From Mustelus asterias (Eukaryota), in NCBI RefSeq assembly GCF_964213995.1, contig NC_135830.1, positions 13,516,001 through 13,580,000 on the forward strand: 64,000 nt of DNA, read 5' to 3'. This document shows, piece after piece, positions 17,111 through 64,000 of the stretch. The position numbers and the translations under genes were made by a program. The notes beneath the pieces were generated by a model, which was given only the letters and a program-made list of their open reading frames with translations, did not search any database and was not told the origin of the DNA. Position 1 is the stretch's first letter; each line of letters begins with the position of its first letter.

Positions 17111-17154
17111 GTCTGTTCTGTTTCTGTGCGCGTGGTCACTGTGTTGGGGCCAGG

Positions 17155-19935: not shown

Positions 19936-20019
19936 ACCTGTGTGTGGAGGTCTGCAACGAGAGAGAAGAAAGATCTCAAGCGGCAGTTTGGTCTTCAAAT
20001 GTGGGAGCTGCCCTGCGAA

Positions 20020-20675
20020 TGTGGAGAGCTGGGGGGAATCCCTGGGGGCTCAGGGCCAAGGACAATGGCAAAGAGCCGGGGAGAACAGGAGGCGTGCTAA
20101 AGGGCAGAGAGCTGGGGGCGGGGGGGGGGGCACAGAGTCTGGGGAAAGGGCCGAGAGCCGGGGGAAAGGGCAGAGAGCCAGGAGAAAGGGCAGAGAGCCA
20201 GGAGAAATGGGAAAGAGCGCCAATGGAAAGGGCAGGGAGCCAGGTGAAAGGGCAGAGAAACAGGAGAAAAGGCAGCGAGATGGAGGAAATGGCAGAGAGA
20301 TCAGGGAAAGAGGAGAAGCCAGGATAAAGGGCAGGGAGGCCGGGGAAAGGACAGAGAGCCGACGAAAAGTGCAAAAGAGCCCTGGGGAAAGGGCAGAGAG
20401 TCAGGGGGAAAGACAGAGAGTCAGGGGGGAAGGGCAGAGAGCCGGGGGAACGGGGAAAGCGAATAGTGAGCAGGGACAGAGGGCAGAGAGCCGGGGGAAA
20501 GGGTAGGGTGCTGAGGGAAAGGGCAGAGAGCCGGGGGAGAGGGCACAGAGCTGGAGGGAAGTGTCGAGAGCCAGGTGGAAGTGCAGAGAGCCAGGTGAAA
20601 GGGAAAGGAGCCACAGGGAATGGCAGAGAGCCAGGGGAAAGGGCAGAGAGCCAGGGAAAATGGGCAGAGAGTGGG
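20020..20675 (+). repeat. G/purine-rich tandem repeat of about 20 bp (GGGCAGAGAGCC[A/G]GGGGAAA)
   Basis: Unit recurs throughout, e.g. 20148-20210, 20490-20540, 20620-20670. The top strand has very few T. Confidence 0.9.
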
Positions 20676-21000
20676 TGATCGACGGGCGGAGTGAGGAGGT
20701 GCAAAATAGAGCTATCACCACAATCAGATCATCTGTAATCTCAGTGAACTATGGAGGTGACTTCAGGGTCCGAATGGTCAACTCTTGCTATTAATGTACG
20801 ACCCTTAAATTAATCAATGTTGCAATTATTTGAATTTGTAATCACATTTACAGTTTCCTGGTCATTCAGTAAGTATTCATTCCGAAGGTATTTCTGAAGG
20901 AAAGTCACTAATCTTCGTTTTGTGGAGTGAGAGGCAGTGAGTTGGAGAGAGGAAGGGGCATCAGTCAGTTTGAACACAGGCAATATCCAAAAATTACAAT

Positions 21001-31360: not shown

Positions 31361-31834
31361 AGCAGCAATAAAAGGACATCTATGCAAGCAGCCAGTGCCA
31401 CAATAAAATAAAGCTGCTTACAAACTGCGGAGAACATGTTTTTAAAAAATACATTTCTTAAAGGCACACTGGCGTCACTTTCCTAAAAACATAAAAGGTG
31501 CAACCTTCCCCAACAAAAATTCTATTTGTCAAAAGAGTCTGATGAGTTTGACACTGCAATCTTCCCAAACTCTGTCAATTTCTTTAGCAATTGGGAGATT
31601 TGTGTCCATGGGGGAGCGGGTGGTGTGGAGCTTTTGCATGCCAGAGAAGCCATCAAAATCAACGATGACAATTGCAAAGATCAGAACATTTCAAAGGCTC
31701 TCACATGCAGTACGTGTGGTGGAGTTTTAATAAACAAGATTCCAAAAGGGTTAATTGAGCCAGAAAATAACAGATTTCTTCTGCAATATCGTTCTACAAT
31801 GGATGGTTCACAGGAACTCCAGATGTGTGTAAAG

Positions 31835-33035
31835 TGAAACACATTGACGAAGGGAAGACGGTAGATGTGGTTTATATGGATTTCAGCAAGGCGTTCGATA
31901 AGGTCCCCCATGCAAGGCTTCTAGAAAAAGTGAGAGGGCACGGGATCCAAGGGGCTGCTGCCCGATGGATCCAGAACTGGCTTGCCCAAAGGAGGCAGAG
32001 AGTGGGTATAGATGGGTCTTTTTCTAAATGGAGGTCGGTCACCAGTGGTGTGCCCCAGGGATCTGTTCTGGGACTCTTGCTGCTTGTCATTTTCAGAAAT
32101 GACCTGGACGAGGAAGCGGAGGGATGGGTTGGTAAGTTTGCCGATGACATGAAGGTTGGTGAGGTTGTGGATAGTCTGGAGGGATGTCAGAAGTTACAGA
32201 GGGACATAGATAGGATGCAAGACTGGGCAGAGAAGTGGCAGATGGACTTCAACCCAGATAAATGCGAAGTGGTTCATTTTGGCAGGTCAAATGGGATGAA
32301 GGAGTACAATATAAAGGGAAAGACTCTTAGTACGGTAGAGGATCAGAAGGACCTTGGGGTCCGGGTCCATAGGACTCTAAAATCGGCCCCACAGGTGGAG
32401 GAGGTGGTTAAGAAGGCGTATGGTGTGCTGGCCTTTATCAATCAAGGGATTGAGTTTGGGAGTCCGGGGATAATGATGCAGCTATATGAGACCCTCGTCA
32501 GACTCCACTTGGAGTACTGTGCTCAGTTCTGGTCGCCTCACTATAGGAAGGATGTGGAAAAGATTGAAAGGGTGCAGAGGCGATTTACAAGGATGTTGCC
32601 TGGATTGAGTGGCATGCCTTATGAGGATAGGCTGAGGGAGCTCGGTCTTTTCTCCTTGGAGAGACGAAGGATGGGAGGAGACCTAATAGAGGTGTATAAG
32701 ATGTTGAGAGGCATAGATCGTGTTGACTCTCAGAGGCTTTTTCCCAGGGTGAAAATGGCTGCTACGAGAGGACACAGGTTTAAGGTGCTGGGGGGTAGGT
32801 ACAGGGGAAATGTTAGGGGGAAGTTTTTCATACAGAGGGTGGTGGGCGAGTGGAATCGGCTGCCGTCAGTGGTGGTGGAGGCAAACTCAATAGAGTCTTT
32901 TAAGAGACTCCTGGATGAGTACATGGGACTTAATAGGATGGAGGGTTATAGGTAGGCCTAGAAGGTAAGGACATGTTCGGCACAACTTGTAGGGCCGAAG
33001 GGTCTGTTTTGTGCTGTAGTTTTCTATGTTTTCTA
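31835..33035 (+). mobile_element. 5'-truncated CR1 LINE (RT C-terminal half plus 3' UTR)
   Basis: ORF 31825-32955 with DFSKAFDKVPH, GVPQGSVLG, KFADD and LEYCAQFWSP. GGCCGAAGGG...GTGCTGTA stem-loop and short-repeat tail. Confidence 0.95.
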
Positions 33036-34325: not shown

Positions 34326-35195
34326 TTACTTGTGAACTCGCTGGTGCCTCAGCTGTGTGGATGAACGACTGAATCTCTTTCCACACACTGAGCAAGGAAA
34401 TGGCCTCTCCCCGGTGTGAACTCGCTGGTGTGTCAGCAGGGTGGACGACTGAGTGAATCCCTTCCCACACACTGAGCAGATGAACGGCCTCTCCCCAGTG
34501 TGACTCCTTTGGTGATTAAGTAGGTTGGACATCCAAGTGAAGCCTTTCCCACAGAAAAAGCAGGTGAAGGGCCTCTCCCTGGTGTGAGTGAGTTGGTGCA
34601 TCAGCAGATCCATCTGGCTTTTAAAGTACTTCTCACAGTCAGGACATTTAAACAGTCTCTTATCAGTATGAACAAGTTGGTGTGTCAGTAGGTCGAATGA
34701 ACGGGTGAATCCCTTCCCACACACGGAGCAGGGGAACAGTCTCTCCCCAGTGTGAGTGCGTTTATGGTTCAACAGATCATTTTTCCTTTTATAGTTTTTC
34801 TCACAGTCAGAACATTGGAAAGGTCTCTCCTCACTGTGGATACGATGGTGTGACAGGAGGTGGGATGAGTTTGTGAACTCTTTCCCACAGACAGAGCAGG
34901 TAAATGGTCTCTCCCCAGTGTGAACATGCCGGTGTCTTAGAAGGTGGGATGATTTAGTGAATCCTTTCTGACACACAGAGCAAGTGAATGGCCTCTCCCC
35001 AGTGTGACTGCGGTGATGAATATGTAACTCAGATGGGTAATCAAATCCCTTCCCACAGTCTCCACATATCCACGGTTTCTCCCCAGTGGGACAGCACTTG
35101 TGTTTTGACAGGTTTGATGAGCGACTGAAACCTCGTCCACACACAGAACATGTAAACACCTTCTCCCCATTGTGAACGGTGCTTTTTGATTCCAT
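34326..35195 (-). CDS. C2H2 zinc-finger protein (9 canonical fingers plus 1 N-terminal C2HC-like finger)
   Basis: 289-aa ORF with HTGERPF linkers, ending cleanly at HQRVHK*. Confidence 0.88.
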
Positions 35196-35721
35196 GTTCA
35201 GAAGTCGATGATGTTCAGGCCCTGATGAATTGGGTGTCTGTCAGATCCTGATGTGATGTTTGATCTGAGTTTCCCACCTACAAATCCTCCTCTTCCAATA
35301 TGCTGTAAAATTAATTCAAAAAGGAGAAAAAACAGTGATAAACACAAAGGTCGGTTGTGAAATTGAGCTGAATGAATCCGGTAATTTGTGGAGCCGGCAC
35401 AAGGAAAAAGTGACCACGAAAGCTGCTGGATTGTGATTAAAAACTCAAATGGTTTGTTAATGTCCTTCAATTCAGGAAACCTGCCACCCAGTCCAGATCT
35501 ACACAAGAATTCAACCTTAATGGGAGGAGAAAGATAGAGATGAAACAGGGAGGGAATGAACGGAAAGGACTTTATACATCGACAACTGGACAAGAACTTT
35601 GACAGAACCTGCCAAACCACAACCTTCACCAACTCAAAGGACGCAGGAAAACTATCACCTCCAAATGTCGCTTTCAATCTCAAAACAACTTGTAATCCTG
35701 AGGTAACCTGTAACCTCCTGC

Positions 35722-37560: not shown

Positions 37561-38372
37561 AGCAACAGGTTTGAAACACCCACTCCCAGGGAAAAATGGA
37601 GTATGAAAGTAAGCTCGCAGGGACATAAAAACTGACTGTAAAAGTTTCTATAGATATATAAAGAGAAAATGATTGACAAAATGTTAGAAATGGGAGAATT
37701 CATCACGGGGAATAAAGGGCCGAAGGGCCTGTTCCTGTGCTGTATTGTTCTTTGTTCGAGGGCCGAAGGGCCTGTACTGCGCTGTATTGTTCTATGTTCT
37801 GTGTTCTATGGATCTGTCAATCAGCCTCAACCAGCACCTTCAGGAGAATTGGGAGGGTGAATATTAGATACAGCAGAGTGAGAATGGAGGGAGAGTGTGT
37901 GGGATGGAGATTCACAGCTTTTGGGGAATGAGAGAGGAAAGAATGTTCCAGAGAAACTAGAATTGTCCTGAATTTCTATCCTGTGCTGACACTGATCACT
38001 TTTGTAAATTCTTTTTACAGGATATTGGAAGGGGAGGATTTACAGACAAATTTCAAACCAAACGTCACATCAACATCTGACATCCTCACTCAATTCATCG
38101 GGACCTGAATATTTCGACCTTTGTTTCTCAAAGGAGAAATGTTTCTCTGTTCTGTGCTTCAAAAACTTTAATCATTTGTGTGACTTGAAAAGCACCGAGA
38201 CACATACACAGCTGAGTGAGAGTGTTCCAGGGCACTGAGTGTGGAAAGAGCTTTAACCAGTTACATTGCCTGAAAATACATCGCAGCATTCACAGTGGGA
38301 GAGACTGTACCTGTGTTCTGTGTGAGATTTAACTGCTTGTTTAACCTGGAGAGTCACAAGGACACCCACACC

Positions 38373-39130
38373 ATGGAGAAACCGTGGAAATGTGGGGACT
38401 GTGGGAAGGGATTCATTTCCCCATCTCAGCTGGAAGCTCATCGACGCAGTCACACTGGGGAGAGACCATTCACTTGCTGTGTGTGTGGCAAGGGATTCAG
38501 TCAGTTATCGAATCTGCGGACACACCAGCGAGTTCACACTGGGGAGAGGCCGTTCACCTGCTCTCAGTGTGGGGAGGGATTCACTCGGTTATCCAGCCTG
38601 CAGACTCATCAGCGAGTTCACACTGGGGAGAGGCCATTCACCTGCTCTCAGTGTGGGAAGGGATTCACTGACTTATCCAGCCTGCGGGGACACCAGCGAA
38701 TTCACACTGGGGAGAGACCATTCACCTGCTCTCAGTGTGGGGACGGATTCACTCAGTCATCCGCCCTGCGGAGACACCAGCGAGTTCACACTGGGGAGAA
38801 GCTGTTCACTTGCTCTCAGTGTTTAAAGGGATTCACTCAATTATCCCACCTGCAGACACACCAGCGAGTTCACACTGGGGAGAGGCCATTCACCTGCTCT
38901 CAGTGTGGGAAGGGATTCACTGACTTATCCAACCTGCAGACACACCAGCGAGTTCACACTGGGGAGAAACCATTCACCTGCTCTCAGTGTGGGAAGGGAT
39001 TCACTCAGTCATCCAGCCTGCGGAGACACCAGCGAGTTCACACTGGGGGAGGCCATTCATCTGCTCTCAGTGTGGGAAGAGTTTCAGAACTTCATCCCAC
39101 CTGCTGAGACACCAACCAATTCACAAGTGA
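38373..39130 (+). CDS. C2H2 zinc-finger protein (8 fingers plus a 9th after a 1-nt deletion)
   Basis: ACCATGG start MEKPWKC. The ORF as read ends at 39107. ACTGGGGGAGG near 39045 lacks one A relative to the linker, and restoring it gives ...HQPIHK* ending at 39130. Confidence 0.8.
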
Positions 39131-44805: not shown

Positions 44806-46106
44806 TGTTGTTATATGGTACAGATTAGATATATTATTTATAGCTCTGTAATAAAATACACTTATTATATCTGGCTGTGTAATTTTGGACTGCAGCTATA
44901 TTATATATTTCCAACAATCTCTTCCCTCAGAGAATTGTTAGTATCTAGATTTCTCTTCCCTAGGGACCAGTGGAGGGATTGAATATATTCAAGGATGAGT
45001 TAGACAGTTTTTGAATGATAAGGGAGTCAATAATTATTGGGAACAGGCTGGAAAATGGAGAGAAAGCTCAGATGAGGAAGGATTTCTTCACTCAAGGACG
45101 TGGTGATGTTTTGGATTCTCTACCCCAGAGGACTATAGAGCCTCAGTCATCAAGAATTTTCAAGAGAGGGATTGATAGGTTTCTAGATATTGAAGATATC
45201 GATGGATATGGGGGACAGTGTGGGGAAAATAATGCAGAGGTAGATCAACCAATAATCTCAATGAATGGTTGAGCAGACTCGATGGGCCGAATGCTGACTG
45301 CAGCTCCTATTTGTTCTGATTTCTGTGCTGGACAGGAAGCAGTGAACATGGATCTGTCAATCAGCCTCAATCAGCACCTTCAGGAGAATTGGGAGGGTGA
45401 ATATTAGATACAGCAGAGTGAGAATGGAGGGAGAGTGTGTGGGATGGAGATTCACGGCTTTTGGGGAATGAGAGAGGAAAGAATGTTCATTAGAATCATA
45501 GAATTGCTGCATCTTATCAACCGTCCCTGAGCTTTCACAATGAATCCCACTTCTGAGGACACCCTTATCTCTGACTTGTCTGTACTGCTGGCAGTCTCAC
45601 AAAGCAGCTGCCTGTGTGCTGATACACACCCTGCTGGGCAAGTTTAATGCTCCATGACTGTGTCTTTAATGAATGCTCCATAGAAACTAGAAATGTAGAT
45701 TTGAATTTCGATCATATTCTGAATTGCGATATTTTTTTTTCTAAATTGACTTACAGGATATTAGACAAGGAGAAATCAGACAGAAATCTCCAACATCACA
45801 TCGAGATCTGACAGAGTGACTCGATTTCTTGGGACCTGAATATCATCGGCCTTTGAATCTAGCAGGAGAAATGTTTGTTTGGCCTCTTGGCTTCAAAAGA
45901 TTGTAAACATCGCTGTGACTAGAAATGCACTGAGATACACACACCCGAGTGAGAGTGTTCCAGTGCACTGAGTGTGGAAAGAGCTTTAACCAGTTACACA
46001 GCCTGAAAATACATCGCAGCATTCACAGCGCGGAGAGACTGTACCCGTGTTCTGTGTCAGATTTAACTGATTGTTTAACCTGGAGAGTCACAAGGACACC
46101 CACACC

Positions 46107-47504
46107 ATGGAGAAACCATGGAAATGTGGGAACTGTGGGAAGGGATTCAGGTTCCCATCTCTGCTGGAAATTCATCGACGCAGTCACACTGGGGAGAGAC
46201 CATTCACCTGCTCTGTGTGTGGGAAGGGATTCACTGACTTACCTAATCTGCAGAGACACCAACGACTTCACACTGGGGAGAGGCCATTCACCTGCTCTGT
46301 GTGTGGGAAGGGATTCAGTCAGTTATCCAGCCTGCAGAAACACAATCTCACTCACACCAATGAGAGACTATTTAAATGCTCTGACTGTGGGAGTGGTTTC
46401 AAAAGCTCTGGGGAACTGGTGTCCCACCAGCGCATTCACACTGAGGAGAGACCGTTCAGCTGCTCTCACTGCACAAAGAGATTTAGAACTTCATCCGACC
46501 TGCGGATACACCAGCGAGTTCACACTGGGGAGAGACCGTTCACCTGCTCTGTGTGTGGGAAGGGATTCACTCATTCATCCAGCCTGCTGAGTCACAATCT
46601 CACTCACACCAATGAGAGACCGTTTAAATGCTCTGACTGTGGGAGCGGATTCAGAAGTTCTCAGGATCTGGTATCCCACCAGCGCATTCACACTGGGGAG
46701 AGACCGTTCAGCTGCTCTCACTGCTCAATGAGATTTAGAACTTCATCCAACCTGCAGATTCACCAGCGAGTTCACACAGGGGAAAGACCGTTCACCTGCT
46801 CTGTGTGTGGGAAGGGATTCACTCGGTCATCCAGCCTGCAGAAACACAAAGCCACTCACACCAATGAGAGACCATTTAAATGCTCTGACTGTGGGAATGG
46901 CTTCAAAAGGTCTCAGGATCTGGTGTCCCACCAGCGCATTCACACTGAGGAGAGACCGTTCAGCTGCTCTCACTGCTCAAAGAGATTTAGAACTTCAACC
47001 AACCTGCGGCAACACCAGGGAGTTCACACCGGGGAGAGACCATTCACCTGCTCTGTGTGTGGGAAGGGATTCACAACTTCATCCCACCTGCGCAGACACA
47101 AAGTCACTCACACTAATGAGAGACCGTTTAAATGCTCTGACTGTGGGAGCGGATTCAAAAGCTCTCAGGACCTGGTGTCCCACCAGCGCATTCACACTGA
47201 GGAGAGACCGTTCAGCTGCTCTCACTGCTCAAAGAGATTTAAAAGGTCATCCAGCCTGTGGGAACATCAGCGAGTTCACACTGGGGAGAGACCATTCCCC
47301 TGCTCTGTGTGTGGGAAGGGATTCACTACTTCATCCAGCCTGCAGAAACACAAAGCCACTCACTCCAAGGAGAGACCCTTTAAATGCTCTGCCCGAGAGG
47401 CCGGCTTCAGAAGCTCTCAGGAACTGATGATCCCCGAGCACATTCACACCGGGGAGAGGCCGTTCAGCTGCTCTCACTGTTCAAGGAGGTTTAGAATATC
47501 ATGA
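46107..47504 (+). CDS. C2H2 zinc-finger protein (15 intact fingers, decayed fingers continue to about 47775)
   Basis: ACCATGG start MEKPWKC within ORF 46071-47504. Repeating three-finger module. Confidence 0.85.
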   Translation: MEKPWKCGNCGKGFRFPSLLEIHRRSHTGERPFTCSVCGKGFTDLPNLQRHQRLHTGERPFTCSVCGKGFSQLSSLQKHNLTHTNERLFKCSDCGSGFKSSGELVSHQRIHTEERPFSCSHCTKRFRTSSDLRIHQRVHTGERPFTCSVCGKGFTHSSSLLSHNLTHTNERPFKCSDCGSGFRSSQDLVSHQRIHTGERPFSCSHCSMRFRTSSNLQIHQRVHTGERPFTCSVCGKGFTRSSSLQKHKATHTNERPFKCSDCGNGFKRSQDLVSHQRIHTEERPFSCSHCSKRFRTSTNLRQHQGVHTGERPFTCSVCGKGFTTSSHLRRHKVTHTNERPFKCSDCGSGFKSSQDLVSHQRIHTEERPFSCSHCSKRFKRSSSLWEHQRVHTGERPFPCSVCGKGFTTSSSLQKHKATHSKERPFKCSAREAGFRSSQELMIPEHIHTGERPFSCSHCSRRFRIS

Positions 47505-49045: not shown

Positions 49046-49882
49046 GATGTTGACGGTGCTCCCACTGCAGTCCTGTGATGAAAATATAGACTGGTTGGTG
49101 AAATGTAGATAACAGGTAGAATTGATATCTAATGAGGACTTTATACTTTAGAATTGAATACAGGGCTCATTGTTACTAACGGGGAAAGAAGGGTTAAAAC
49201 CCTTACCCAGAACCCTTTTCACACACATGTGGACATCTCTGAATCTGACGCACACCAAAAGGAACATTACACAAGGGGCTGGAATTCACTGGAATTTCTT
49301 AACAACCTTTCAATAGAAATGTCCTGGTACCGACTGTGACAAAGGACACAACAGACAGCAAGAACCAGGAGGAACCTTTAACCCAGAGAATGTTAATCAC
49401 CTTGTTCAGGACACCGCTGCCAGGCACAGGAGGACCCCTGGAAAAACGGAACATTTAATTTCTGTCTGTTTCACAATTCTAAATGACTGATTCTTTATCA
49501 AAGGAATGTTTAAAAACAGCATTGTGATATTCCAAGGTGAGTGTGTCTGGGAAAGGCGCACACTGATGTGTTTTTATTTTAAACAGGAGGATCCATTGAA
49601 AAGCAGCTCTGGACGATACGAGCACCTCCTGACCTACTTTCAATTCATTTCAAATCACCCATCACTTTCCCTGCAATATTCTTTATTCTTTCCTGGGATG
49701 TGGACACTGCTGGCAAAGCCCCAGCACACGGTGCTCAGCTCCTAATTGCCCCTGAATAGAGTGACTTGCTCAGCCATTTCAGAGGGACAGTTAAGAGTCA
49801 CCCACATTGCTGTGTGGGTCTGGATTCACATGTAGGCCAGACCGGGTAAGGATGGCAGATTTCCTTCCCTGATTTCCTTCCC

Positions 49883-52168
49883 AGGATTAAGGAGAATCCC
49901 AAGGCATTTTATTCATACGTTAGGAACAAAAGGGTTGTAAGGGAAAAAATCGGACCTCTCAGGGACAAAAGTGGGGACTTATGCTTGGAGCCCAAAGAGG
50001 TAGGGGAGATCCTAAATGAATACTTTGCGTCGGTATTCACTAAGGAGAGGGATGTGTTGACTGGGAGTGTCTCAGAGGGGAGTGTTGAACCGTTGGAGAA
50101 AATCTCCATTACAAAGGAGGAAGTGTTAGGTTTGTTAGAGAATATAAAGACTGACAAATCCCCAGGGCCTGATGGAATCTATCCAAGGCTGCTCAGGGAG
50201 ACGAGAGGTGAAATAGTTGGGCCTCTGACGCAAATCTTTGTCTCGTCACTGGACACAGGTGAGGTCCCAGAGGATTGGAGGATAGCCAATGTGGTCCCGT
50301 TATTTAAGAAGGGTAGGAAGGATAACCCGGGTAATTATAGGCCGGTGAGCTTGACGTCCGTGGTGGGGAAGTTGTTGGAGAATATTCTTAAAGATAGGAT
50401 GTATGCGCATTTAGAAAGGAATAAACTCATTAACGATAGTCAACATGGTTTTGTGAGAGGGAGGTCATGCCTCACGAACCTGGTGGTGTTTTTTGAAGAA
50501 GTGACCAAAATGGTTGACGAAGGAAGGGCCGTGGATGTTGTCTATATGGACTTTAGTAAAGCGTTTGACAAAGTCCCTCATGGTAGGCTAGTGAAAAAGG
50601 TTGGATCCTTTGGGATAAAGGGGGAGGTGGCTAGATGGGTGGAGAACTGGCTTGGTCATAGAAGACAGAGGGTGGTAGTGGAAGGGTCTTTTTCCGGCTG
50701 GAGGCCTGTGACTAGTGGTGTACCACAGGGCTCTGTATTGGGACCTCTGCTGTTTGTGATTTATATAAATGATCTGGAAGAAGGAGTAACTGGGGTGATC
50801 AGTAAGTTTGCAGACGACACAAAACTGGCAGGACTTGCAGATAGTGAGGAACATTGTCAGAGGCTACAGAAGGATATAGATAGGCTGGAAATTTGGGCAA
50901 GGAAATGGCAGATGGAGTTCAATCCTGATAAATGCGAAGTGATGCATTTTGGTGGGAATAATGTAGGGAGGAGCTACACGATAAATGGAAGAACCATAAA
51001 GGGTGTAGAGACGCAGAGGGACCTGGGTGTGCAAGTCCACAGATCTTTGAAGGTGACGTCACAGGTGGAGAAGGTGGTGAAGAAGGCATATGGCATGCTT
51101 GCCTTTATAGGACGGGGCATAGAGTATAAAAGTTGGGGTCTGATGTTGCAGATGTATAGAACGTTGGTTCGGCCGCATTTGGAATACTGCGTCCAGTTCT
51201 GGTCGCCACACTACCAGAAGGACGTGGAGGCTTTGGAGAGAGTACAGAGGAGGTTTACCAGGATGTTGCCTGGTATGGAGGGGCTTGGTTATGAGGAGAG
51301 ATTGGGGAAACTGGGGTTGTTCTCCTTGGAAAGACGGAGGATGAGGGGAGACTTAATAGAGGTGTATAAAATTATGAAAGGCATAGATAGGGTGAACGGT
51401 GGGAAGCTTTTCCCCGGGTCGGTGGTGACGTTCACGAGGGGTCATAGGTTCAAGGTGAAGGGGGGGAGGTTTAACACAGATATCAGAAGGACATATTTCA
51501 CACAGAGGGTCGTGGGGGCCTGGAATGTGTTGCCGGGCAAGGTGGTGGAGGCGGACACACTGGGAACGTTTAAGACTTATCTAGACAGCTATATGAACAG
51601 AGTGGGAATGGAGGGATACAAAAGAGTGGTCTAGTTTGGACCAGGGAGCGGCGCGGGCTAATTGTTCCTGGTTTCTCGTTTCAAGGCTTCATTCTATGAT
51701 CATCTTGCTGGTGCCAGTACAGAGTGAGACTGCGGATAGTTGGGAACCTGTCTCGGGGGCAGGGAATTCATATGGTGTTCGTGGAAGTGGAAATGACTAG
51801 GGTTGGGAAGCATTTTCCGATCGGGGCCATTGTGATCTCCTGGACTCGTTTCGATCGCCTCAGGGGGTCGGAGAGGAATTTCCCAGATTTTTGTTTCCCC
51901 ATATTGGCCCTGGGGTTTTTCACTCTGGGTTTTCGCCTCTCCCTGGAGATCACATGGTCTGGAATGGGGGGGTGGGGGTAAGTTAATAGGTTGTAATGAA
52001 CAAAGCATCGTAGCTGTGAGGGACAGCTCGGTGGATAGGATATTGGTATGTAGATAGGCTGGAAAATTGGGCGGGGATCCTGGATTCAGGATTCAATCCT
52101 GGACCGGGGAGCGGCGCGGGCTTGGAGGGCCGAAGGGCCTGTTCCTGTGCTGTATTGTTCTTTGTTTG
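49883..52168 (+). mobile_element. Young 5'-truncated CR1 LINE with intact RT ORF and extended 3' UTR, inserted in a SINE
   Basis: 549-aa uninterrupted ORF 49985-51634 (KSPGPDG, NYRPVSLTS, QHGF, KFADD). 3' end GGCCGAAGGGCCTGTTCCTGTGCTGTATTGTTC. Confidence 0.96.
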
Positions 52169-52868: not shown

Positions 52869-54395
52869 TTAAAGGGCCTCTCCTGGGTGTGAGGGACATT
52901 GTGTCTCAGCAGCTGGAGTATCGAGTGAATCCCTTCCCACACACAGAGCAGGTGAATGGTCTCTCCCAGTGTGAACTCGCTGGTGTCTCCTCAGTGTGCA
53001 TGCCCTTCCAAACCTCTTTGTGCAGTGAGAGCAGCTGAACGGTCTCTCCCCAGTGTGAATGCGCTGGTGATCTATCAGATGCTCAGAAATTTTGAAGCCA
53101 CTCCCACAGTCGGAGCATTTAAAGGGTCTTTCCTGGGAGTGAGTGACTTTGTGTCTCTGCAGGCTGGATAACCGTGTGAATCTGTTCCCACACTCGGAGC
53201 AGGTGAACGGTCTCTCCCCGCTGTGAACTTGCTGGTGAGTCAGCAGGGTGGATGAGTGAGTGAATCCCTTCCCACACTCGGTGCAGGTAAATGGTCTCTC
53301 CTCAGTGTGAAGGCGCTGGTGTGTCAGCAGGGTGAATGACTGACTGAATCCCTTCCCACACACAGAGCAGATGTACGGTCTCTCCCTGGTGTGAACTCGC
53401 TGGTGTCTCTGCAGTGTGGATGACCTCTTAAACCTCTTTGTGCAGAGAGAGCAGCTGAACGGTCTGTCCTCAGTGTGAATGCGCTGGTGGGACACCAGTT
53501 CCCCAGAAATTTTGAATTCACTCCCACAGTCCGAGCATTTAAAGGGCCTCTCACTGGTGTGAGTGACTTTATGACTCAGCAGGTTAGGTAAATTAGTGAA
53601 TCCCTTCCCACACACCGAGCAGGTGAATGGCCTCTCTCCGGTGTGAACTCGCTGGTGTGTCAGCAGGGCAGATAACTGCGTGAATCCCTTCCCACAGTCA
53701 GAGCAAGTGAACGGTCTCTCCCCGGAGTGAACTCGCTGGTGGTTCCGCAGGTTTGATGATGATCTAAATCTCATTGTGCAGAGAGAGCAGCTGAACGGTC
53801 TGTCCTCAGTGTGAATGCGCTGGTGGGACATCAGATCCCGAGAACTTTTGAAGCAACTCTCACAGTCAGAGCATTTAAAGGGTCTCTCATTGGTGTGAGT
53901 GACTTTGTGCGTCAGCAGGGCGGATGACCGAAAGAATCCCTTCCCACACAGATTGCAGGTGAACGGTCTCTCCCCAGTGTGAATTTGTTGGTGTGCCCGC
54001 AGTTCGGAGGACCGAGAGAATCCCTTCCCACACATGGAGCAGCTGAACGGTCTCTCCCCGGTGTGAACCCGCTGATGTCTCCGCAGTGTGGATGACCATT
54101 TAAATTTCATTGTGCAGAGAGAGCAGCTGAACAGTCTCTCCTCACTGTGAATGCGCTGGTGGGACACCAGTTCTCCAGAGCTTTTAAATCCGCTCCCACA
54201 GTCAGAGCATTTAAAGGGTCTCTCATTGGTGTGAGTGAGATTGTGACTCAGCAGGTGGGAGAACTTAATGTATCCCTTCCCACACACTGAGCAAGTGAAG
54301 GGTCTCTCCCGAGTGTGACTGCGTTGATGAATTTCCAAATCACAGGGCAACATGAATCCTTGTCCACAATCGTCACACTTCCACAGTTTCTCCAT
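52869..54395 (-). CDS. C2H2 zinc-finger protein (17 fingers, then a frameshifted/decayed tail to about 52740)
   Basis: 508-aa ORF starting MEKLWKC. A 1-nt deletion in the linker near 52965 and further lesions follow. Confidence 0.85.
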   Translation of the reverse strand: MEKLWKCDDCGQGFMLPCDLEIHQRSHTRERPFTCSVCGKGYIKFSHLLSHNLTHTNERPFKCSDCGSGFKSSGELVSHQRIHSEERLFSCSLCTMKFKWSSTLRRHQRVHTGERPFSCSMCGKGFSRSSELRAHQQIHTGERPFTCNLCGKGFFRSSALLTHKVTHTNERPFKCSDCESCFKSSRDLMSHQRIHTEDRPFSCSLCTMRFRSSSNLRNHQRVHSGERPFTCSDCGKGFTQLSALLTHQRVHTGERPFTCSVCGKGFTNLPNLLSHKVTHTSERPFKCSDCGSEFKISGELVSHQRIHTEDRPFSCSLCTKRFKRSSTLQRHQRVHTRERPYICSVCGKGFSQSFTLLTHQRLHTEERPFTCTECGKGFTHSSTLLTHQQVHSGERPFTCSECGNRFTRLSSLQRHKVTHSQERPFKCSDCGSGFKISEHLIDHQRIHTGERPFSCSHCTKRFGRACTLRRHQRVHTGRDHSPALCVGRDSLDTPAAETQCPSHPGEAL

Positions 54396-55460
54396 GATGC
54401 GGGTGTCCTTGTGACTCTCCAGGTTTGATGATCAGTTGAATCCTTGTCCACACAGAACACGTGTACGATCTCTCTTCACTGTAAATGGTGCAATGTTGTT
54501 TCAGCCTGTGTAACTGGTTAAAGCTCTTTCCACTATCAGTGGACTGGAACACTCTCATTCGGGTGTGTTCCAGTCACACTGATGTTTAAAATCTCCTTAA
54601 GCAAACAGATCAGACAAACATTGCTTTTCTAGATTCAAAGGTCGATGATATTCAGGTCCCAATAAATCGAATGACTCTGTCAAATCTTCATGTGATGTTT
54701 AGTTTGAAATTTCTGTCTATAAATCCTCACCTCCTGATATCTATGAAAGGAATTTACAACAGACATCATTGTCAGTACAGGATAGAAATTCAGAACAGAC
54801 AATTCTAGTTTCTATGGAACATTCTTTCCTCTCTCATTCTTCAAAAGCTGTCAATCTCCATCCCACACACTCTCCCTCAATTCTCACTCTGCTCTCCTGA
54901 GTATACAACCTCCCAAGTCTATTGAAGATGCTGATTCAGACTGATTAACGGATCCATGCTGACCACTTTCTATATTGGACACAGAGATCTGAAAACCTAT
55001 GTGTAACGACCGGCCTACACGCTAGAAATTAAAATCTGTGCCATATGTGGGACCGGATAACTGGATTGGGAGAAGGAGAAGGATGTGGGGAAGAATTTTA
55101 TTTTGGTGCAGAAAGGTCATTACCTGGAAGCCGCTGCCTCAGAGGGTTGTGGAAGTGCAAATGATCCATGATTAATCTTCAAGCTGACAGCCACGTTAAA
55201 GTTTTACATTTGGCCATAAATGAGCAGACTGATGCTGTGTGTAATGCACTGTATTACCTGGTTACAGATACATGAAGAATGTGAGGAGGATTTTTATTTA
55301 GGCAGCGAGTGGTGACCTGGAAGTTAAAAATTCAACAAGTCCCCAATTTCCCCCAGAATGCAAAAGAAATGCAAAAGGGGAACAAAGAAAGTGTTTTACT
55401 CACAGATGTTGGCCTCTTTTAGGTCAAAAGGAGCTCACGAACTATTTTTCAAATTGACAT

Positions 55461-55533
55461 CGAGCCAGCCAGGAGTTGAACCTGGAATCTTCTGATCCGT
55501 AGTCAGACGCGTTATCCATTGCGCCACTGACCC
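55461..55533 (-). tRNA. tRNA-Arg-ACG: tRNA-Arg(ACG)
   Basis: GGGTCAGTGGCGCAATGGATAACGCGTCTGACTACGGATCAGAAGATTCCAGGTTCAACTCCTGGCTGGCTCG, 73 nt. Matches vertebrate Arg-ACG as recalled except U4:G69 and A57. First T4 run lies about 32 nt downstream. Confidence 0.92.
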
Positions 55534-55682
55534 ACAGTCTCACAGATTTTGGAGACAGGAGGAAGTTTGAGCCTGTCTGAAGCTCAATCTTCATTCAGAG
55601 AGAGAAGCAGCAGCAGCTTTGCTGGGCAGGAATGAGCAGCTGAACAAGCTCATTGTGCAACTTCCGCATTCAGACAATGGGG

Positions 55683-55760
55683 AGCTCTGATTGGCTGGAG
55701 GACCTTCCCCGCACATGCGCAGCTTCCCCTCTCCCTTGGACATGCGCAGCCCCGGGCCTT
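55683..55760. promoter_or_regulatory. Candidate promoter (reverse CCAAT, two CATGCGCA NRF1-like motifs)
   Basis: GATTGGCTG near 55689, CATGCGCA at 55714 and 55741. Upstream of the minus-strand ZNF and tRNA. Confidence 0.45.
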
Positions 55761-55794
55761 GGGGGAGTGGACAGATTCAATCTTCCTCCTCTCT

Positions 55795-58700
55795 CCAACA
55801 TCTGTGAGTGGGAAAGATTGGATTGTCCAGCCAGTCCACCATATTGGCCGTTCGCTTTGCGTGTTGGCCAGTATAGTGTGCTCCAGGCAGGGGGCGGGCA
55901 GAGGATAAGGAGTTCAAGGCGGGCTTAATGCGCGCCTTGCGGTGAGCTTTTGGAAATGTGGCCGCTGGGAGGAACGCCTTGGTCGGCGTGAAGTTTCTGT
56001 TTCAAGTGCTTGGGTTCGTGACTTGTGCAAGAACTTTTTGTTTCGGCTGGGGCTTGTTGAATGCTGCTCTCGCTGGGATTTCTGTGCCTTGAAAGGCGTG
56101 GCCCGGGTGGATGCAGTCTCGGAGGGCCCAAGCCAGGGAGGAGCCATTTGGGAACTATGGTTTCGGAAGGTTCAGCCGCGGAAGGTGTGACCCCAGACGG
56201 TGCAGCCCCAGTGGGTGTGATTTTGGAAGTTCTGGCCCGGAGTGGTGGACTTTGGAGGACTGTAGTTGAGCGTTGTCGACTTCGGACGGTGGAATGTTGA
56301 TGGGCGAAGCTCTGGAAGGCGATGCCTCCGAAATGTTTCACAATTGTATGGTTGTTCATGGATTGTTTGTTATTGTAATATGTGGTTTTCCTGTTATGAT
56401 AGTTGGTGGTTTGTTCCGGCCCCCGTCTATTTTCTTGCGTTATTTGTGGCCTGGGGGGCATCCCCCCCTGGATAAAGTCACCCCCGGGGGGTGTGACATC
56501 CACTTGGGGAAAGTTCTGGGTGGTGAAGCCCCGGATATAGTAACACCAGAGGGATTTTATTCTCCGGGAGAAAAATTGGGAAGGCAGGCCCGAACTGAGT
56601 ACCCTGGAGAGACTCTCCCACCGCCCCGGCTGAAATTCCGGAAGGGATTCCGGATTGAGGAGGCGGGGTGGTTTCCCCCATTTCCCCCCTCCGGCTGAAC
56701 ATCCGTAAGGTGTAACCCCCGGATATGAGTACCACTGGAGGGTTGCATCCCCCGGCAGGTGGACAAACCCAGGGGACGGTGCCCTTATGCTTCAGTGTTT
56801 ATTTTTTGTTGTGTACAGTTGTAGTGTTGTGTTAATGTTTGTAGATTTGTAGATTATGATTTGTAAATGGAGGTGTATTTTGAGGGCAATGCCCTGGAAA
56901 ACTGTAATTGACGATGAACCCTTCCGAAATGGAAGGTAGTAATTGATAAATGGATGGTGTTAGCCATCGGTAATGTATTTTTCAGATTTGTTCTTTGTTC
57001 ATTTGTATTTGTTTTGTAATATCGTGTTTGTACTAACCAACGGAAAATCTTTGCATTGTTTGTGGCCTGGGGGTATCCCCCCCCCCGGATAGAGTGACCC
57101 CCGGGGGGTGTGACATCCAGTTGGGGAAAGTGTCCGGGGCACCCAGAGGGGTAACACCGGGGGGGTTTTGTTCTCCGGGAGAAAAATTGGGAAGGCAGGC
57201 CGAATTGAGTATCCCGGAGAGCTTTTCCCACCGCCCCAGCCGAAAATCCGGAAGGCAGTCCGGATTGAGTAGGTTCGGGGTGGTTTTCCTGTCCCCCCGC
57301 CTCCAGTCGAACATCCGTCAGGTGGAACCCCCGGACCTGAGTACCTCTGGAGGGTTGCATCCCCCGGCAGGGGAAAAACCCGGGAGGCGGTGCCCTGGAG
57401 GGCGGCGGATTTGCTGCAATGTTTATTCTTGTTGTGTTGTACTAATGTTTGTCACTTTGTAGATTATGATTTGTAATTGGAGGTGTATTGAGAGGGCAAT
57501 GCCCTGGAAAACTATGACCGTTAGTGAACCCTTCCGAAATGGAAGGTAGTAACTGATAAATGGATGGCGTTAGCCATTGGTAATGTATTTTTTCACATTT
57601 GTTCTTTGTGTATTTGTAACTGTTTTGCATTAACGTATTTGTAATAAACAAAAAGAAACCAACATCTGTGAGTGGGAAAGATTGGATTGTCCAGCCAGTC
57701 CACCATATTGGCCGTTCGCTTTGCGTGTTGGCCAGTATAGTGTGCTCCAGGCAGGGGGTGGGCAGAGGATAAGGAGTTCAAGGCGGGCTTAATGCGTGCC
57801 TTGCGGTGAGCTTTTGGAAATGTGGCCGCTGGGAGGAACGCCTTGGTCGGCGTGAAGTTTCTGTTTCAAGTGCTTGGGCTCGTGACTTGTGCAAGAACTT
57901 TTTGTTTCGGCTGGGGCTTGTTGAATGTTGCTCTCGCTGGGATTCCTGTGCCTTGAAAGGCGTGGCCCGGGTGGATGCAGTCTCGGAGGGCCCAAGCCAG
58001 GGAGGAGCCATTTGGGAACTATGGTTTCAGAAGGTTCAGCCGCGGGAGGTGTGACCCCAGACGGTGCAGCCCCAGTGGGTGTGATTTTGGAAGTTCTGGC
58101 CCGGAGTGGTGGACTTTGGAGGACTGTAGTTGAGCGTTGTCGACTTCGGACGGTGGAATGTTGATGGGCGAAGCTCTGGAAGGCGATGCCTCCGAAATGT
58201 TTCACAATTGTATGGTTGTTCATGGATTGTTTGTTATTGTAATATGTGGTTTTCCTGTTATGATAGTTGGTGGTTTGTTCCGGCCCCCGTCTATTTTCTT
58301 GCGTTATTTGTGGCCTGGGGGGCATCCCCCCCTGGATGGAGTCACCCCCGGGGGGTGTGACATCCACTTGGGGAAAGTTCTGGGTGGTGAAGCCCCGGAC
58401 ATAGTAACACCAGAGGGATTTTATTCTCCGGGAGAAAAATTGGGAAGGCAGGCCCGAACTGAGTACCCTGGAGAGACTCTCCCACCACCCCGGCTGAAAT
58501 TCCGGAAGGCAGTCCGGATTGAGCAGGCGGGGTGGTTTCCCCATTTCCCCCCTCCGGCTGAACATCCGTAAGGTGTAACCCCCGGATATGAGTACCACTG
58601 GAGGGTTGCATCCCCCGGCAGGTGGACAAATCCAGGGGACGGTGCCCTTATGCTTCAGTGTTTATTTTTTTGTTGTGTGCAGTTGTAGTGTTGTTAATGT

Positions 58701-61700
58701 TTGTAGATTATGATTTGTAAATGGAGGTGTATTTTGAGGGCAATGCCCTGGAAAACTGTAATTGACGATGAACCCTTCCGAAATGGAAGGTAGTAATTGA
58801 TAAATGGATGGTGTTAGCCATCGGTAATGTATTTTTCATGGATTGTTTGTTATTGTAATATGTGGTTTTCCTGTTATGATAGTTGGTGGTTTGTTCTGGC
58901 CCCCGTCTATTTTCTTGCGTTATTTGTGGCCTGGGGGGCATCCCCCCCTGGATAAAGTCACCCCCGGGGGGTGTGACATCCACTTGGGGAAAGTTCTGGG
59001 TGGTGAAGCCCCGGATATAGTAACACCAGAAGGATTTTATTCTCCGGGAGAAAAATTGGGAAGGCAGGCCCAAACTGAGTACCCTGGAGAGACTCTCCCA
59101 CCGCCCCGGCTGAAATTCCAGAAGGGATTCCGGATTGAGTAGGTTCGGGGTGGTTTTCCTTTCCCTCCCCTCCGGCCGAACATCCATTAGGTGGAATCCC
59201 CGGACATGAGTACCTCTGGAGGGTTGCAACCCCAGCAGGGGACAAACCCGGGAGGCGGTGCCCTGGAGGGTGGCGGAGATGCTGCAATGTTTATTTTTGT
59301 TGTGTTGTACTAATGTTTGTCACTTTGTAGATTATGATTTGTAATTGGAGGTGTATTTAGAGGGCAATGCCCTGGAAAACTGTGACCGTTAGTGAACCCT
59401 TCCTAAATTGAAGGTAGTGACTGATAAATGGATGGCGTTAGCCATTAGTAATGTATTTTTCACATTTGTTCTTTGTGTATTTGTAATTGTTTTGTATTAA
59501 CGTATTTGTAATAAACAAAAAGAAACCAACATCTGTGAGTGGGAAAGATTGGATTGTCCAGCCAGTCCACCATATTGGCCGTTCGCTTTGCGTGTTGGCC
59601 AGTATAGTGTGCTCCAGGCAGGGGGCGGGCAGGCAGAGGATAAGGAGTTCAAGGCGGGCTTAATGCGCGCCTTGCGGTGAGCTTTTGGAAATGTGGCCGC
59701 TGGGAGGAGCGCCTTGGTCGGCGTGAAGTTTCTGTTTCAAGTGCTTGGGTTCGTGACTTGTGCAAGAACTTTTTGTTTCGGCTGGGGCTTGTTGAATGCT
59801 GCTCTCGCTGGGATTCCTGTGCCTTGAAAGGCGTGGCCCAGGTAGATGCAATCTCGGAAGACCCAAGCCAGGGAGGAGCCATTTGGGAACTATGGTTTCG
59901 GAAGGTTCAGCCGCGGAAGGTGTGACCCCAGACGGTGCAGCCCCAGTGGGTGTGATTTTGGAAGTTCTGGCCCGGAGTGGTGGACTTTGGAGGACTGTAG
60001 TTGAGCGTTGTCGACTTCGGACGGTGGAATGTTGATGGGCGAAGCTCTGGACGGCGATGCCTCCGAAATGTTTCACAATTGTATGGTTGTTCATGGATTG
60101 TTTGTTATTGTAATATGTGGTTTTCCTGTTATGATAGTTGGTGGTTTGTTCCGGCCCCCGTCTATTTTCTTGCGTTATTTGTGGCCTGGGGGGCATCCCC
60201 CCCTGGATAAAGTCACCCCCGGGGGGGTGTGACATCCACTTGGGGAAAGTTCTGGGTGGTGAAGCCCCGGACATAGTAACACCAGAGGGATTTCTATTCT
60301 CCGGGAGAAAAATTGGGAAGGCAGGCCCGAACTGAGTAACCTGGAGAGACTCTCCCACCGCCCCGGCTGAAATTCCGGAAGGGATTCCGGATTGAGTAGG
60401 CGGGGTGGTTTCCCCCATTTCCCCCCTCCGGCTGAACATCCGTAAGGTGTAACCCCCGGATATGAGTACCACTGGAGGGTTGCATCCCCCGGCAGGTGGA
60501 CAAACCCAGGGGACGGTGCCCTTATGCTTCAGTGTTTATTTTTTGTTGTGTACAGTTGTAGTGTCGTGTTAATGTTTGTAGATTTGTAGATTATGATTTG
60601 TAAATGGAGGTGTATTTTGAGGGCAATGCCCTGGAAAACTGTAATTGATGATGAACCCTTCCGAAATGGAAGGTAGTAATTGATAAATGGATGGTGTTAG
60701 CCATCGGTAATGTATTTTTCAGATTTGTTCTTTGTTCATTTGTAATTGTTTTGTAATATCGTGTTTGTGCTAACCAACGGAAAATCTTTGCACTGTTTGT
60801 GGCCTGGGGGGTATCCCCCCCCTGGATAGAGTGACCCCCGGGGGGTGTGACATCCAGTTGGGGAAAGTGTCCGGGGCACCCAGAGGGGTAACACCGGGGG
60901 GGTATTGTTCTCCGGGAGAAAAATTGGGAAGGCAGGCCGAATTGAGTATCCCGGAGAGCTTTTCCCACCGCCCCAGCCGAAAATCCGGAAGGCAGTCCGG
61001 ATTGAGTAGGTTCGGGGTGGTTTTCCTGTCCCCCCGCCTCCAGTCGAACATCCGTCAGGTGGAACCCCCGGACCTGAGTACCTCTGGAGGGTTGCATCCC
61101 CCGGCAGGGGAAAAACCCAGGGGACGGTGCCCTTATGCTTCAGTGTTTATTTTTTTGTTGTGTACAGTTGTAGTGTTGTGTTAATGTTTGTAGATTTGTA
61201 GATTATGATTTGTAAATGGAGGTGTATTTTGAGGGCAATGCCCTGGAAAACTGTAATTGACGATGAACCCTTCCGAAATGGAAGGTAGTAACTGATAAAT
61301 GGATGGCGTTAGCCATTGGTAATGTATTTTTTTCACATTTGTTCTTTGTGTATTTGTAACTGTTTTGCATTAACGTATTTGTAATAAACAAAAAGAAACC
61401 AACATCTGTGAGTGGGAAAGATTGGATTGTCCAGCCAGTCCACCATATTGGCCGTTCGCTTTGCGTGTTGGCCAGTATAGTGTGCTCCAGGCAGGGGGCG
61501 GGCAGAGGATAAGGAGTTCAAGGCGGGCTTAATGCGCGCCTTGCGGTGAGCTTTTGGAAATGTGGCCGCTGGGAGGAACGCCTTGGTCGGCGTGAAGTTT
61601 CTGTTTCAAGTGCTTGGGTTCGTGACTTGTGCAAGAACTTTTTGTTTCGGCTGGGGCTTGTTGAATGCTGCTCTCGCTGGGATTCCTGTGCCTTGAAAGG

Positions 61701-64000
61701 CGTGGCCCAGGTAGATGCAATCTCGGAAGACCCAAGCCAGGGAGGAGCCATTTGGGAACTATGGTTTCGGAAGGTTCAGCCGCGGAAGGTGTGACCCCAG
61801 ACGGTGCAGCCCCAGTGGGTGTGATTTTGGAAGATCTGGCCCGGAGTGGTGGACTTTGGAGGACTGTAGTTGAGCGTTGTCGACTTCGGACGGTGGAATG
61901 TTGATGGGCGAAGCTCTGGAAGGCGATGCCTCCGAAATGTTTCACAATTGTATGGTTGTTCATGGATTGTTTGTTATTGTAATATGTGGTTTTCCTGTTA
62001 AGAAAGTTGGTGGTTTGTTCCGGCCCCCGTCTATTTTCTTGCGTTATTTGTGGCCTGGGGGGCATCCCCCCTGGATAAAGTCACCCCCGGGGGGTGTGAC
62101 ATCCACTTGGGGAAAGTTCTGGGTGGTGAAGCCCCGGACATAGTAACACCAGAGGGATTTTATTCTCCGGGAGAAAAATTGGGAAGGCAGGCCCGAACTG
62201 AGTACCCTGGAGAGACTCTCCCACCGCCCCGGCTGAAAATCCGGAACGGATTCCGGATTGAGTAGGTTCGGGGTGGTTTCCCCATTTCCCCCCTCCGGCT
62301 GAACATCCGTAAGGTGTAACCCCCGGATATGAGTACCACTGGAGGGTTGCATCCCCCGGCAGGTGGACAAACCCAGGGGACGGTGCCCTTATGCTTCAGT
62401 GTTTATTTTTTGTTGTGTACAGTTGTAGTGTTGTGTTAATGTTTGTAGATTTGTAGATTATGATTTGTAAATGGAGGTGTATTTTGAGGGCAATGCCCTG
62501 GAAAACTGTAATTGATGATGAACCCTTCCGAAATGGAAGGTAGTAATTGATAAATGGATGGTGTTAGCCATCGGTAATGTATTTTTCAGATTTGTTCTTT
62601 GTTCATTTGTAATTGTTTTGTAATATCGTGTTTGTACTAACCAACGGAAAATCTTTGCATTGTTTGTGGCCTGGGGGGTATCCCCCCCCCCCCCCCCCCC
62701 GGATAGAGTGACCCCCGGGGGGTGTGACATCCAGTTGGGGAAAGTGTCCGGGGCACCCAGAGGGGTAACACCGGGGGGGGTTTTGTTCTCCGGGAGAAAA
62801 ATTGGGAAGGCAGGCCGAATTGAGTATCCCGGAGAGCTTTTCCCACCGCCCCAGCCGAAAATCCGGAAGGCAGTCCGGATTGAGTAGGTTCGGGGTGGTT
62901 TTCCTGTCCCTCCGCCTCCAGCCGAATATCCGTCAGGTGGAACCCCCGGACCTGAGTACCTCTGGAGGGTTGCATCCCCCGGCAGGGGAAAAACCCAGGA
63001 GGCGGTGCCCTGGAGGGCGGCGGATATGCTGCAATGTTTATTCTTGTTATGTTGTACTAATGTTTGTCACTTTGTAGATTATGATTTGTAATTGGAGGTG
63101 TATTGAGAGGGCAATGCCCTGGAAAAATATGACCGTTAGTGAACCCTTCCGAAATAGAAGATAGTAACTGATAAATGGATGGCGTTAGCCATTGGTAATG
63201 TATTTTTTTCACATTTGTTCTTTGTGTATTTGTAACTGTTTTGCATTAACGTATTTGTAATAAACAAAAAGAAACCAACATCTGTGAGTGGGAAAGATTG
63301 GATTGTCCAGCCAGTCCACCATATTGGCCGTTCGCTTTGCGTGTTGGCCAGTATAGTGTGCTCCAGGCAGGGGGCGGGCAGAGGATAAGGAGTTCAAGGC
63401 GGGCTTAATGCGCGCCTTGCGGTGAGCTTTTGGAAATGTGGCCGCTGGGAGGAACGCCTTGGTCGGCGTGAAGTTTCTGTTTCAAGTGCTTGGGTTCGTG
63501 ACTTGTGCAAGAACTTTTTGTTTCGGCTGGGGCTTGTTGAATGCTGCTCTCGCTGGGATTCCTGTGCCTTGAAAGGCGTGGCCCAGGTAGATGCAATCTC
63601 GGAAGACCCAAGCCAGGGAGGAGCCATTTGGGAACTATGGTTTCGGAAGGTTCAGCCGCGGAAGGTGTGACCCCAGACGGTGCAGCCCCAGTGGGTGTGA
63701 TTTTGGAAGTTCTGGCCCGGAGTGGTGGACTTTGGAGGACTGTAGTTGAGCGTTGTCGACTTCGGACGGTGGAATGTTGATGGGCGAAGCTCTGGACGGC
63801 GATGCCTCCGAAATGTTTCACAATTGTATGGTTGTTCATGGATTGTTTGTTATTGTAATATGTGGTTTTCCTGTTATGATAGTTGGTGGTTTGTTCCGGC
63901 CCCCGTCTATTTTCTTGCGTTATTTGTGGCCTGGGGGGCATCCCCCCCTGGATAAAGTCACCCCCGGGGGGGTGTGACATCCACTTGGGGAAAGTTCTGG
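55795..64000 (+). repeat. Tandem array (macrosatellite) of about 1.87 kb, probably retroelement-derived
   Basis: Units start with CCAACATCTGTGAGT at 55795, 57659, 59526, 61399 and 63275 (periods 1864, 1867, 1873, 1876). Each complete unit ends GTAATAAACAAAAAGAAA. The array runs off the window end. Confidence 0.95.

Follow-up and report, generated by a model that had tools for sequence, protein, structure and literature searches.

A Tandem Array of a Probable Retroposon at a Predicted Zinc-Finger Exon-1 Splice Donor in Mustelus asterias

How do repeats of nearly 1.9 kb come to stand in tandem directly behind a predicted first exon, with the same 15 bases between each copy and the next? This question is raised by the right end of a 64,000-nt stretch of Mustelus asterias DNA (NCBI RefSeq assembly GCF_964213995.1, contig NC_135830.1, positions 13,516,001 to 13,580,000, forward strand), the whole of which we call the window; the repeat itself is called element A. 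Our answer is that element A is very probably a young, non-coding retroposon of the target-primed reverse transcription (TPRT) type with a preference for splice donors of C2H2 zinc-finger (ZNF) genes.

Element A and its target site

The 15-mer CCAACATCTGTGAGT occurs exactly on the plus strand at 55795, 57659, 59526, 61399 and 63275 and on the minus strand at 55398-55412, and a minus-strand copy with 2 mismatches lies at 55538-55552; in all, 7 matches were seen in the window against 0.28 expected from shuffles. Every unit of the array ends in the tail AATAAACAAAAAGAAA. Measured with their 15-mer, the units are 1864, 1867, 1873 and 1876 bp long, show pairwise identities of 94.9-98.7%, and consist of a unique 5' part of ~540 bp and two ~610-bp sub-repeats that are 80-88% alike. 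Counting the exact copies and aligning the units confirmed the layout described in the original prediction, a repeated 15-mer ahead of every unit and an A-rich AATAAA tail. In the neighbouring stretch of the assembly, the array continues for 3,019 bp beyond the window to a total of six units. The sixth is followed by CCAACATCAGAGAGT, which has 2 mismatches to the 15-mer, and then by AAAACACTTTC, where the host intron resumes, as had been foreseen for the right end. Tandem Repeats Finder, with a period limit of 500, does not report the array.

When we searched the 3.68-Gb genome for exact element A tails, we found 233; the target pattern NCMACMYC comes after 123 of them and is absent after the other 110. 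Targeting is therefore a strong preference, short of the strict sequence specificity first proposed, and a strictly site-specific, R2-like element was rejected on the same count. A hand count of the 100 on-target tails listed puts them at ~49 separate loci, with haplotype duplicates possible. Copies elsewhere had been expected always to be flanked by the 15-mer; the 30 tail loci that head the listing, which all lie on large contigs, do not have it.

The shape of the copies argues for TPRT. At the 22 scattered loci with a 5' junction in view, truncation points differ and the 3' end is fixed, and 11 of these loci carry an 11-16-bp duplication of their own, each different. Among 79 distinct 5' heads, a sample drawn mostly from the best genome-search hits, 43 stand after exon-1 sequence, 35 after a previous unit and 1 after a 15-mer with a 2-nt deletion; the 15-mer with 0-3 mismatches precedes 78 of the 79. 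Locus-specific 15-mers agree left and right in loci L009 and L022. A DNA circle with one 15-mer, integrating by site-specific recombination, would also yield the constant 5' end and the target-element-target layout, and the original prediction had left this route open. We give it next to no chance, because the 5'-truncated copies, with their fixed 3' end and unrelated duplications, fit TPRT; in addition, the unit holds no recombinase frame.

Element A has only short frames, not conserved in one piece, and tblastn against open reading frames ORF1 and ORF2 of the long interspersed nuclear element (LINE) family B, described below, gave no significant match; Pfam was not applied. The predicted non-autonomous retroelement is supported by this lack of coding capacity together with the fixed 3' end, the truncations and the duplications. 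In the Rfam scan tRNA alone passed. Inside units 1-2 there was no match at gathering score, and no tRNA, 5S, 7SL or small nuclear RNA (snRNA) head with an internal promoter, as in a short interspersed nuclear element (SINE), was found there. Folding of unit 1 in 150-nt windows of the plus strand gave z-scores of -2.1 to +1.1, which speaks for neither a ribozyme nor a strong structure. One or two sub-repeats per full unit were counted in 64 collected units, and more in one longer unit; their commonest junction looks like a tail plus CCAAC, which suggests the trace of an older stacked insertion.

Older relatives, 64-86% identical to element A, lie mostly at the TCCCTGATTG site of a repeat resembling a long terminal repeat (LTR). 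A young sub-lineage of element A is back at this LTR-like site, bringing 28 nt of ZNF exon 1 with it. The autonomous partner with the same 3' end that had been proposed was looked for with the older-copy tail; this query gave 41 matches of 593 candidates, all of them older relatives or young element A, and an ORF2 upstream on the same strand was found at 0 of the 23 of these loci that were read. At L039, L125, L126 (C19), L120 (C13), L122 (C16) and L123 (C26), we observed arrays whose unit is ~240 bp of an LTR-like repeat, which has CCAAT/TATA-like motifs, plus element A; nested 168-bp truncated copies stand between 15-bp duplications. Two unrelated sites, at L079 and L081 (C3), each have scattered A and B insertions <300 bp apart, and L079 shows a ~120-bp duplication.

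The 15-mer differs between loci together with the host sequence upstream of it (CCAACATC, TCCACATC, GCCACATC, CCAACCTC + TGTGAGT), and because of this covariation it is host DNA. Uninterrupted exon-intron junctions of the target type number 94 exact matches genome-wide, some with a LINE further upstream. At least 2 C2H2 linkers lie downstream on the same strand at 13 of the 16 junctions with at least 2.8 kb in view, compared to 0 on the opposite strand. The site is probably the exon-1 splice donor of a clustered C2H2-ZNF gene family, as predicted from DNA only, and the census bears out the earlier view of the 15-mer as a host target adjoining a splice-donor-like GT of ZNF genes. Within the window, the minus-strand gene has a donor, an acceptor and a 519-aa ZNF frame; the ZNF gene behind the array is frameshifted, and its right-hand donor lacks GT. 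The exon-1 region between the two genes (Table 1) is the likely source of element A transcription, with a match that we take to be CCAAT-box-like and with head-to-head exon-1 motifs. Three more C2H2-ZNF frames in the window, at 34326-35240 (-), 38274-39107 (+) and 46071-47504 (+), have first exons unlike the targeted motif.

Unit 1 has 6 base differences from a copy on another contig and 27-107 from its neighbours in the array. Units 1-4 are each closer to a copy at another locus than to one another, with difference counts for unit 2 that may be inflated by alignment, and unit 5 differs from unit 3 at 1 base and unit 6 from unit 4 at 5. On these grounds the array is made of four distinct variants, which either arrived separately or form a mosaic, and of one dimer that was duplicated. 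One insertion followed by tandem amplification, as entertained before, does not agree with this pattern, in which near-exact repetition is confined to the last dimer, and a homogenised macrosatellite was rejected since within-array closeness holds for units 3/5 and 4/6 only. Tandem SINEU-3 copies have been read likewise as sequential insertions (Kojima 2015, PMC4494074).

Growth by duplication could also be extended to the whole pattern, with one or a few old insertions in a ZNF ancestor that gene duplication, conversion between genes and unequal crossover then multiplied, so that the arrays would be satellites and the apparent targeting would be hitch-hiking. Units 5-6 do nearly copy units 3-4, the tRNA chimera described below spread in this way, many contigs are unplaced and possibly haplotype duplicates, and the repeat units of C13, C19 and C26 take in flank DNA. 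We nevertheless find this quite improbable: the 5' 591 bp are 99-100% alike among copies at different loci despite visibly different host flanks, duplications are locus-specific at L009 and L022, scattered truncated copies have duplications of their own, and several unrelated inserts use one nick.

A candidate helper and a tRNA-Arg chimera

Use of the ZNF site by Tx1-clade LINEs, the link originally suggested, was found for family B. This family has APE and RT domains, and its ORF2 is 48% identical to Xenopus Tx1 ORF2 over the full length; B groups with Xenopus Tx1 in our protein tree, which is a quick tree only (SH-aLRT 98). There are 1141 exact B tails, 40 of them at the nick used by element A, and the young B copies fetched from cluster contigs (13/13) all lie ~55 nt upstream of it, within the same exon and often as tandems, with 3 others elsewhere. 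Scoring covered 150 of 1202 endonuclease candidates; >100 of the 150 were at least 97% identical, many in open 1304-aa frames and nearly all on cluster contigs. Endonucleases of the B branches are 85-100% identical, their flanks are TCTC, VCAA or TACC, and the nearest neighbour is of the same flank class in 62/69 cases. The scattered B1 flanks read VCAA, with C at position 2 in 28/30 and A at position 3 in 30/30, and B2 and B3 insert at TAC.. inside and outside the LTR-like repeat. B3 ends in AAAAGAAA, as does element A, and has TCCC at 4/30 loci. It is likely that Tx1 family B moves element A.

Several further B insertions were noted. At L118:2689-2830 and L212-L223, a full-length young B begins with a degenerate ZNF exon 1 and then a head that is tRNA-Val-like by eye, in 7-kb tandem units. 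An internally deleted B derivative of ~2 kb (ORF1 pieces plus the last ~580 bp) sits at the CCAACATC/GCAACATC site (L200:4020-6026; L062, L066, L067, L069, L072, L073, L075). At L009, L011 and L045, a 15-nt B-tail stub between two target 15-mers represents an extreme 5' truncation.

The inverted 15-mer had been taken for an empty site; it proved to be the right-hand duplication of a pre-tRNA-Arg/LINE-tail chimera. The 15-mer copies at 55398 and 55538 bracket a 125-bp insert with the tRNA-Arg, and the order on the minus strand is exon 1, CCAAAATCTGTGAGA, 4 nt, tRNA-Arg, trailer, TTTGACCTAAAAGAGG, CCAACATCTGTGAGT, intron. The tail of the chimera is the family B 3' end. At least 40 copies exist at 95-100%, and the 29 loci read of 30 fetched all have one intron type, 94.0-99.9% identical to that of the window; 7 introns flanking element A match the window intron for 63 nt only. 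Because all 29 share one intron type, the chimera is best read as a single old event spread by gene duplication. A second small-RNA chimera at the ZNF nick, with a family-B tail and a long leader, was seen at L023:2745-2985, L029:3352-3590 and L138:6118-6360, and is presumably tRNA-Gly-like, a label given by eye. Dewa elements are Tx1 elements that insert in spacers of tRNA arrays. Membership in Dewa was rejected, and the analogy drawn earlier from the nearby tRNA fails, as the sole tRNA in the window is itself an insert at a ZNF site.

Guidance by host flanks

We assigned 27 scattered copies to the nearer lineage, ZNF-site or LTR-site, with 4 ties dropped. CCA-flanked copies were nearest to ZNF-site copies in 10/10 cases and TC-flanked copies nearest to LTR-site copies in 10/11 (Fisher 3.4e-5, 21 copies); two copies with other flanks fell into the ZNF-site lineage. 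The first flank base is C in 11/12 for element A vs 7/30 for B1 (ties and one A-run junction dropped), and the second in 10/10 vs 5/60 for B2/B3, such that the flanks of element A depart from those of the helpers at just those positions that distinguish the donor flanks. Two 5' junctions are informative as well. In L040, the nick lies ~70 nt upstream yet the 5' junction is the usual one, and the resulting 85-bp exon-1 duplication stays identical over 70 nt before 3 donor-type differences appear. In L119, the first ~249 nt of the left copy are local, after which it changes to donor-lineage flank. Since lineage predicts the first bases of the site and two junctions switch to the donor flank, these data point to homology guidance at both RNA ends. 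It is known that 3' homology sharpens priming in R2 (PMC10499050) and in SART1/R1 (PMC7265360), and co-transcription has been proposed for SINEU (PMC4494074).

The full model, in which Tx1 proteins carry out TPRT and host flanks at both RNA ends steer it, is in our judgement somewhat likely to be right. Element A would lack a promoter and be transcribed from the ZNF promoter, so that its RNA begins with exon 1, and cleavage a few bases beyond AATAAA would leave CCAAC.. at the RNA 3' end. The family-B endonuclease would nick loose VCAA sites, where pairing of the RNA end with the nicked strand would favour donor-like starts. The end of the complementary DNA would then anneal to homologous exon-1 DNA, fixing the 5' junction between ..GTGAGT and GGGAAAG. 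Every insertion would restore the target, letting copies from different donors stack up, and unequal exchange or a dimer transcript would have produced units 5-6. The site may be a safe haven, because the duplicated donor would let splicing excise the entire array.

Site choice by protein alone would need each sub-lineage of element A to be moved by a different co-expressed Tx1 branch, with a CCAA or TCCY endonuclease. Tx1 specificity has been ascribed mainly to the endonuclease (PMC4494074), the B branches do differ in endonuclease and flank and cluster by flank, and B3 shares both the 3' end of element A and an occasional TCCC site. Nonetheless, no sampled B branch matches the base preferences of element A given above, the sub-lineages with one 3' end offer a protein little to separate them, and donor-type switches at the 5' junction are left unexplained. 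We therefore regard this alternative as unlikely.

Several observations weigh against the flank-guidance model. The genome, and not transcripts, is the source of all that we propose on exon 1, on co-transcription and on the ends of the RNA. The lineage margins are small for several copies, ~1% identity, shared ancestry makes the copies dependent on one another, and among the 10 TCC copies up to 3 are located inside the LTR repeat or look like it. By script, the remaining 11 of the 22 scattered loci have no duplication, and left and right 15-mers mismatch at loci other than L009 and L022, which paralogue recombination could cause. The identity of the helper is circumstantial, since blastn and tblastn of A vs B gave nothing significant (best blastn E 0.13) and the A and B-group tails share only the terminal AAAAGA(AA), short of the common 3' tail of a partner LINE. 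Insertions of the youngest B1 branch are at TCTCT and not at CCAAC, and because of the partial endonuclease scoring, unsampled Tx1 branches with a matching preference may exist.

A bolder reading, to which we give about even odds, is that element A inherits its address: flank DNA at both RNA ends would guide its landing, this non-coding passenger of Tx1 LINEs would thus have shifted from an LTR-like repeat to ZNF exon-1 donors without a change of its 3' end, and a guild of LINEs and passengers would now home to a protein-coding gene family in which splicing hides the inserts. What gives the locus its interest is that a number of young families all insert in what is predicted to be exon 1 of a large ZNF family, known Tx1 targets being otherwise mobile elements, small-RNA genes and simple repeats. 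In tetrapods, ZNF genes of this type repress transposons. The donor-target correlation is evidence from the genome that RNA flanks guide an APE-type LINE, so far mainly a matter of R1/R2 experiments, and, if real, this guidance would explain the fast origin and switching of target specificity.

Elsewhere in the window, two long frames at 31771-32955 and 49850-51634 (26-28% to B ORF2) belong to another LINE type, which we take to be CR1-like, and positions 17000-20700 hold a strongly skewed simple-repeat tract, CA/CACT-rich and then a 20-bp GA-rich array.

Table 1. Coordinates of the features at the array and its neighbouring ZNF genes
Feature	Position	Strand	Remarks
Left target 15-mer	55795..55809	+	Predicted non-coding exon 1 (its end), then GTGAGT splice donor, C2H2-ZNF (pseudo)gene
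Element A unit 1	55810..57658	+	Unique 5' part ~55810-56352; sub-repeats ~56435-57040 and 57051-57651; tail AATAAACAAAAAGAAA
15-mer and unit 2	57659..59525	+	Most divergent variant; different sub-repeat junction
15-mer and unit 3	59526..61398	+	1 difference vs unit 5
15-mer and unit 4	61399..63274	+	5 differences vs unit 6
15-mer and start of unit 5	63275..64000	+	Units 5 and 6 run on past the window, then CCAACATCAGAGAGT, intron, frameshifted ZNF exon
Left duplication of tRNA chimera (CCAAAATCTGTGAGA)	55538..55552	-	End of minus-strand exon 1
Old chimeric insert	55413..55537	-	4-nt leader, tRNA-Arg(ACG) 55460-55534, trailer, ~17-nt 3' end of Tx1 family B
Right duplication of chimera (formerly "empty site")	55398..55412	-	Then intron 1
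C2H2-ZNF reading frame, minus-strand gene	52869..54431	-	Stop to stop; predicted acceptor AG 54742-54741; first ATG ~54395
Predicted bidirectional promoter/exon 1 between two head-to-head ZNF genes	55640..55794	.	CCAAT-box-like match 55694 (-); head-to-head exon-1 motifs

Comparison with known systems

Our literature search turned up no description of a retroelement, Tx1 or otherwise, that targets ZNF exon 1; Repbase/Dfam, subscription journals and supplements were outside the search, so the families may already be named. SVA elements are L1-driven and poly(A)-tailed. Like SVA MAST2 (PMC4494074), element A is a ~2-kb composite non-autonomous retroposon with variable internal repeats and, as we read it, a captured host promoter; unlike element A, SVA is not known to return to a donor gene family. 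Element A would be like R2, R1 and SART1 (PMC10499050, PMC7265360) in being transcribed together with its target and in having its priming sharpened by RNA-DNA homology at the 3' end. Those elements are autonomous, with strict targeting of ribosomal DNA or telomere repeats, whereas element A would be a passenger RNA with loose helpers and has about half of its tails off target.

Family B belongs to the Tx1 clade (Xenopus Tx1L, Keno, Kibi, Koshi) by its APE and RT ORF2, its target preference and its 13-15-bp duplications. PMC4494074 lists DNA transposons, LTR elements, small-RNA genes, satellites and microsatellites as Tx1 targets, with no protein-coding exon among them; here, in contrast, the target is the predicted exon 1 of a protein-coding gene family. 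Unlike in Dewa, no tRNA-array spacer is involved. There is a close likeness to SINEU-3/SINEU-2 with Tx1-Mar of crocodilians (Kojima 2015, PMC4494074), which are likewise non-autonomous, are moved by Tx1, as element A probably is, and share its target preference, whose tandem copies sandwich a target-site duplication, and which lack a promoter of their own, as element A would, and have 5' extensions from flanks; for one SINEU extension the match is to introns in a gene family of RING/B-box zinc-finger type. Element A differs in its length of 1.2-1.9 kb or longer, in having no snRNA or tRNA head by Rfam, and in its main target, a predicted C2H2-ZNF exon-1 donor and not a Mariner element, with donor lineage predicting the site. 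In our reading, element A is a retroposon that works like SINEU-3/Tx1-Mar with R1/R2-style co-transcription, and that is not a SINE, not Dewa and not strictly specific.

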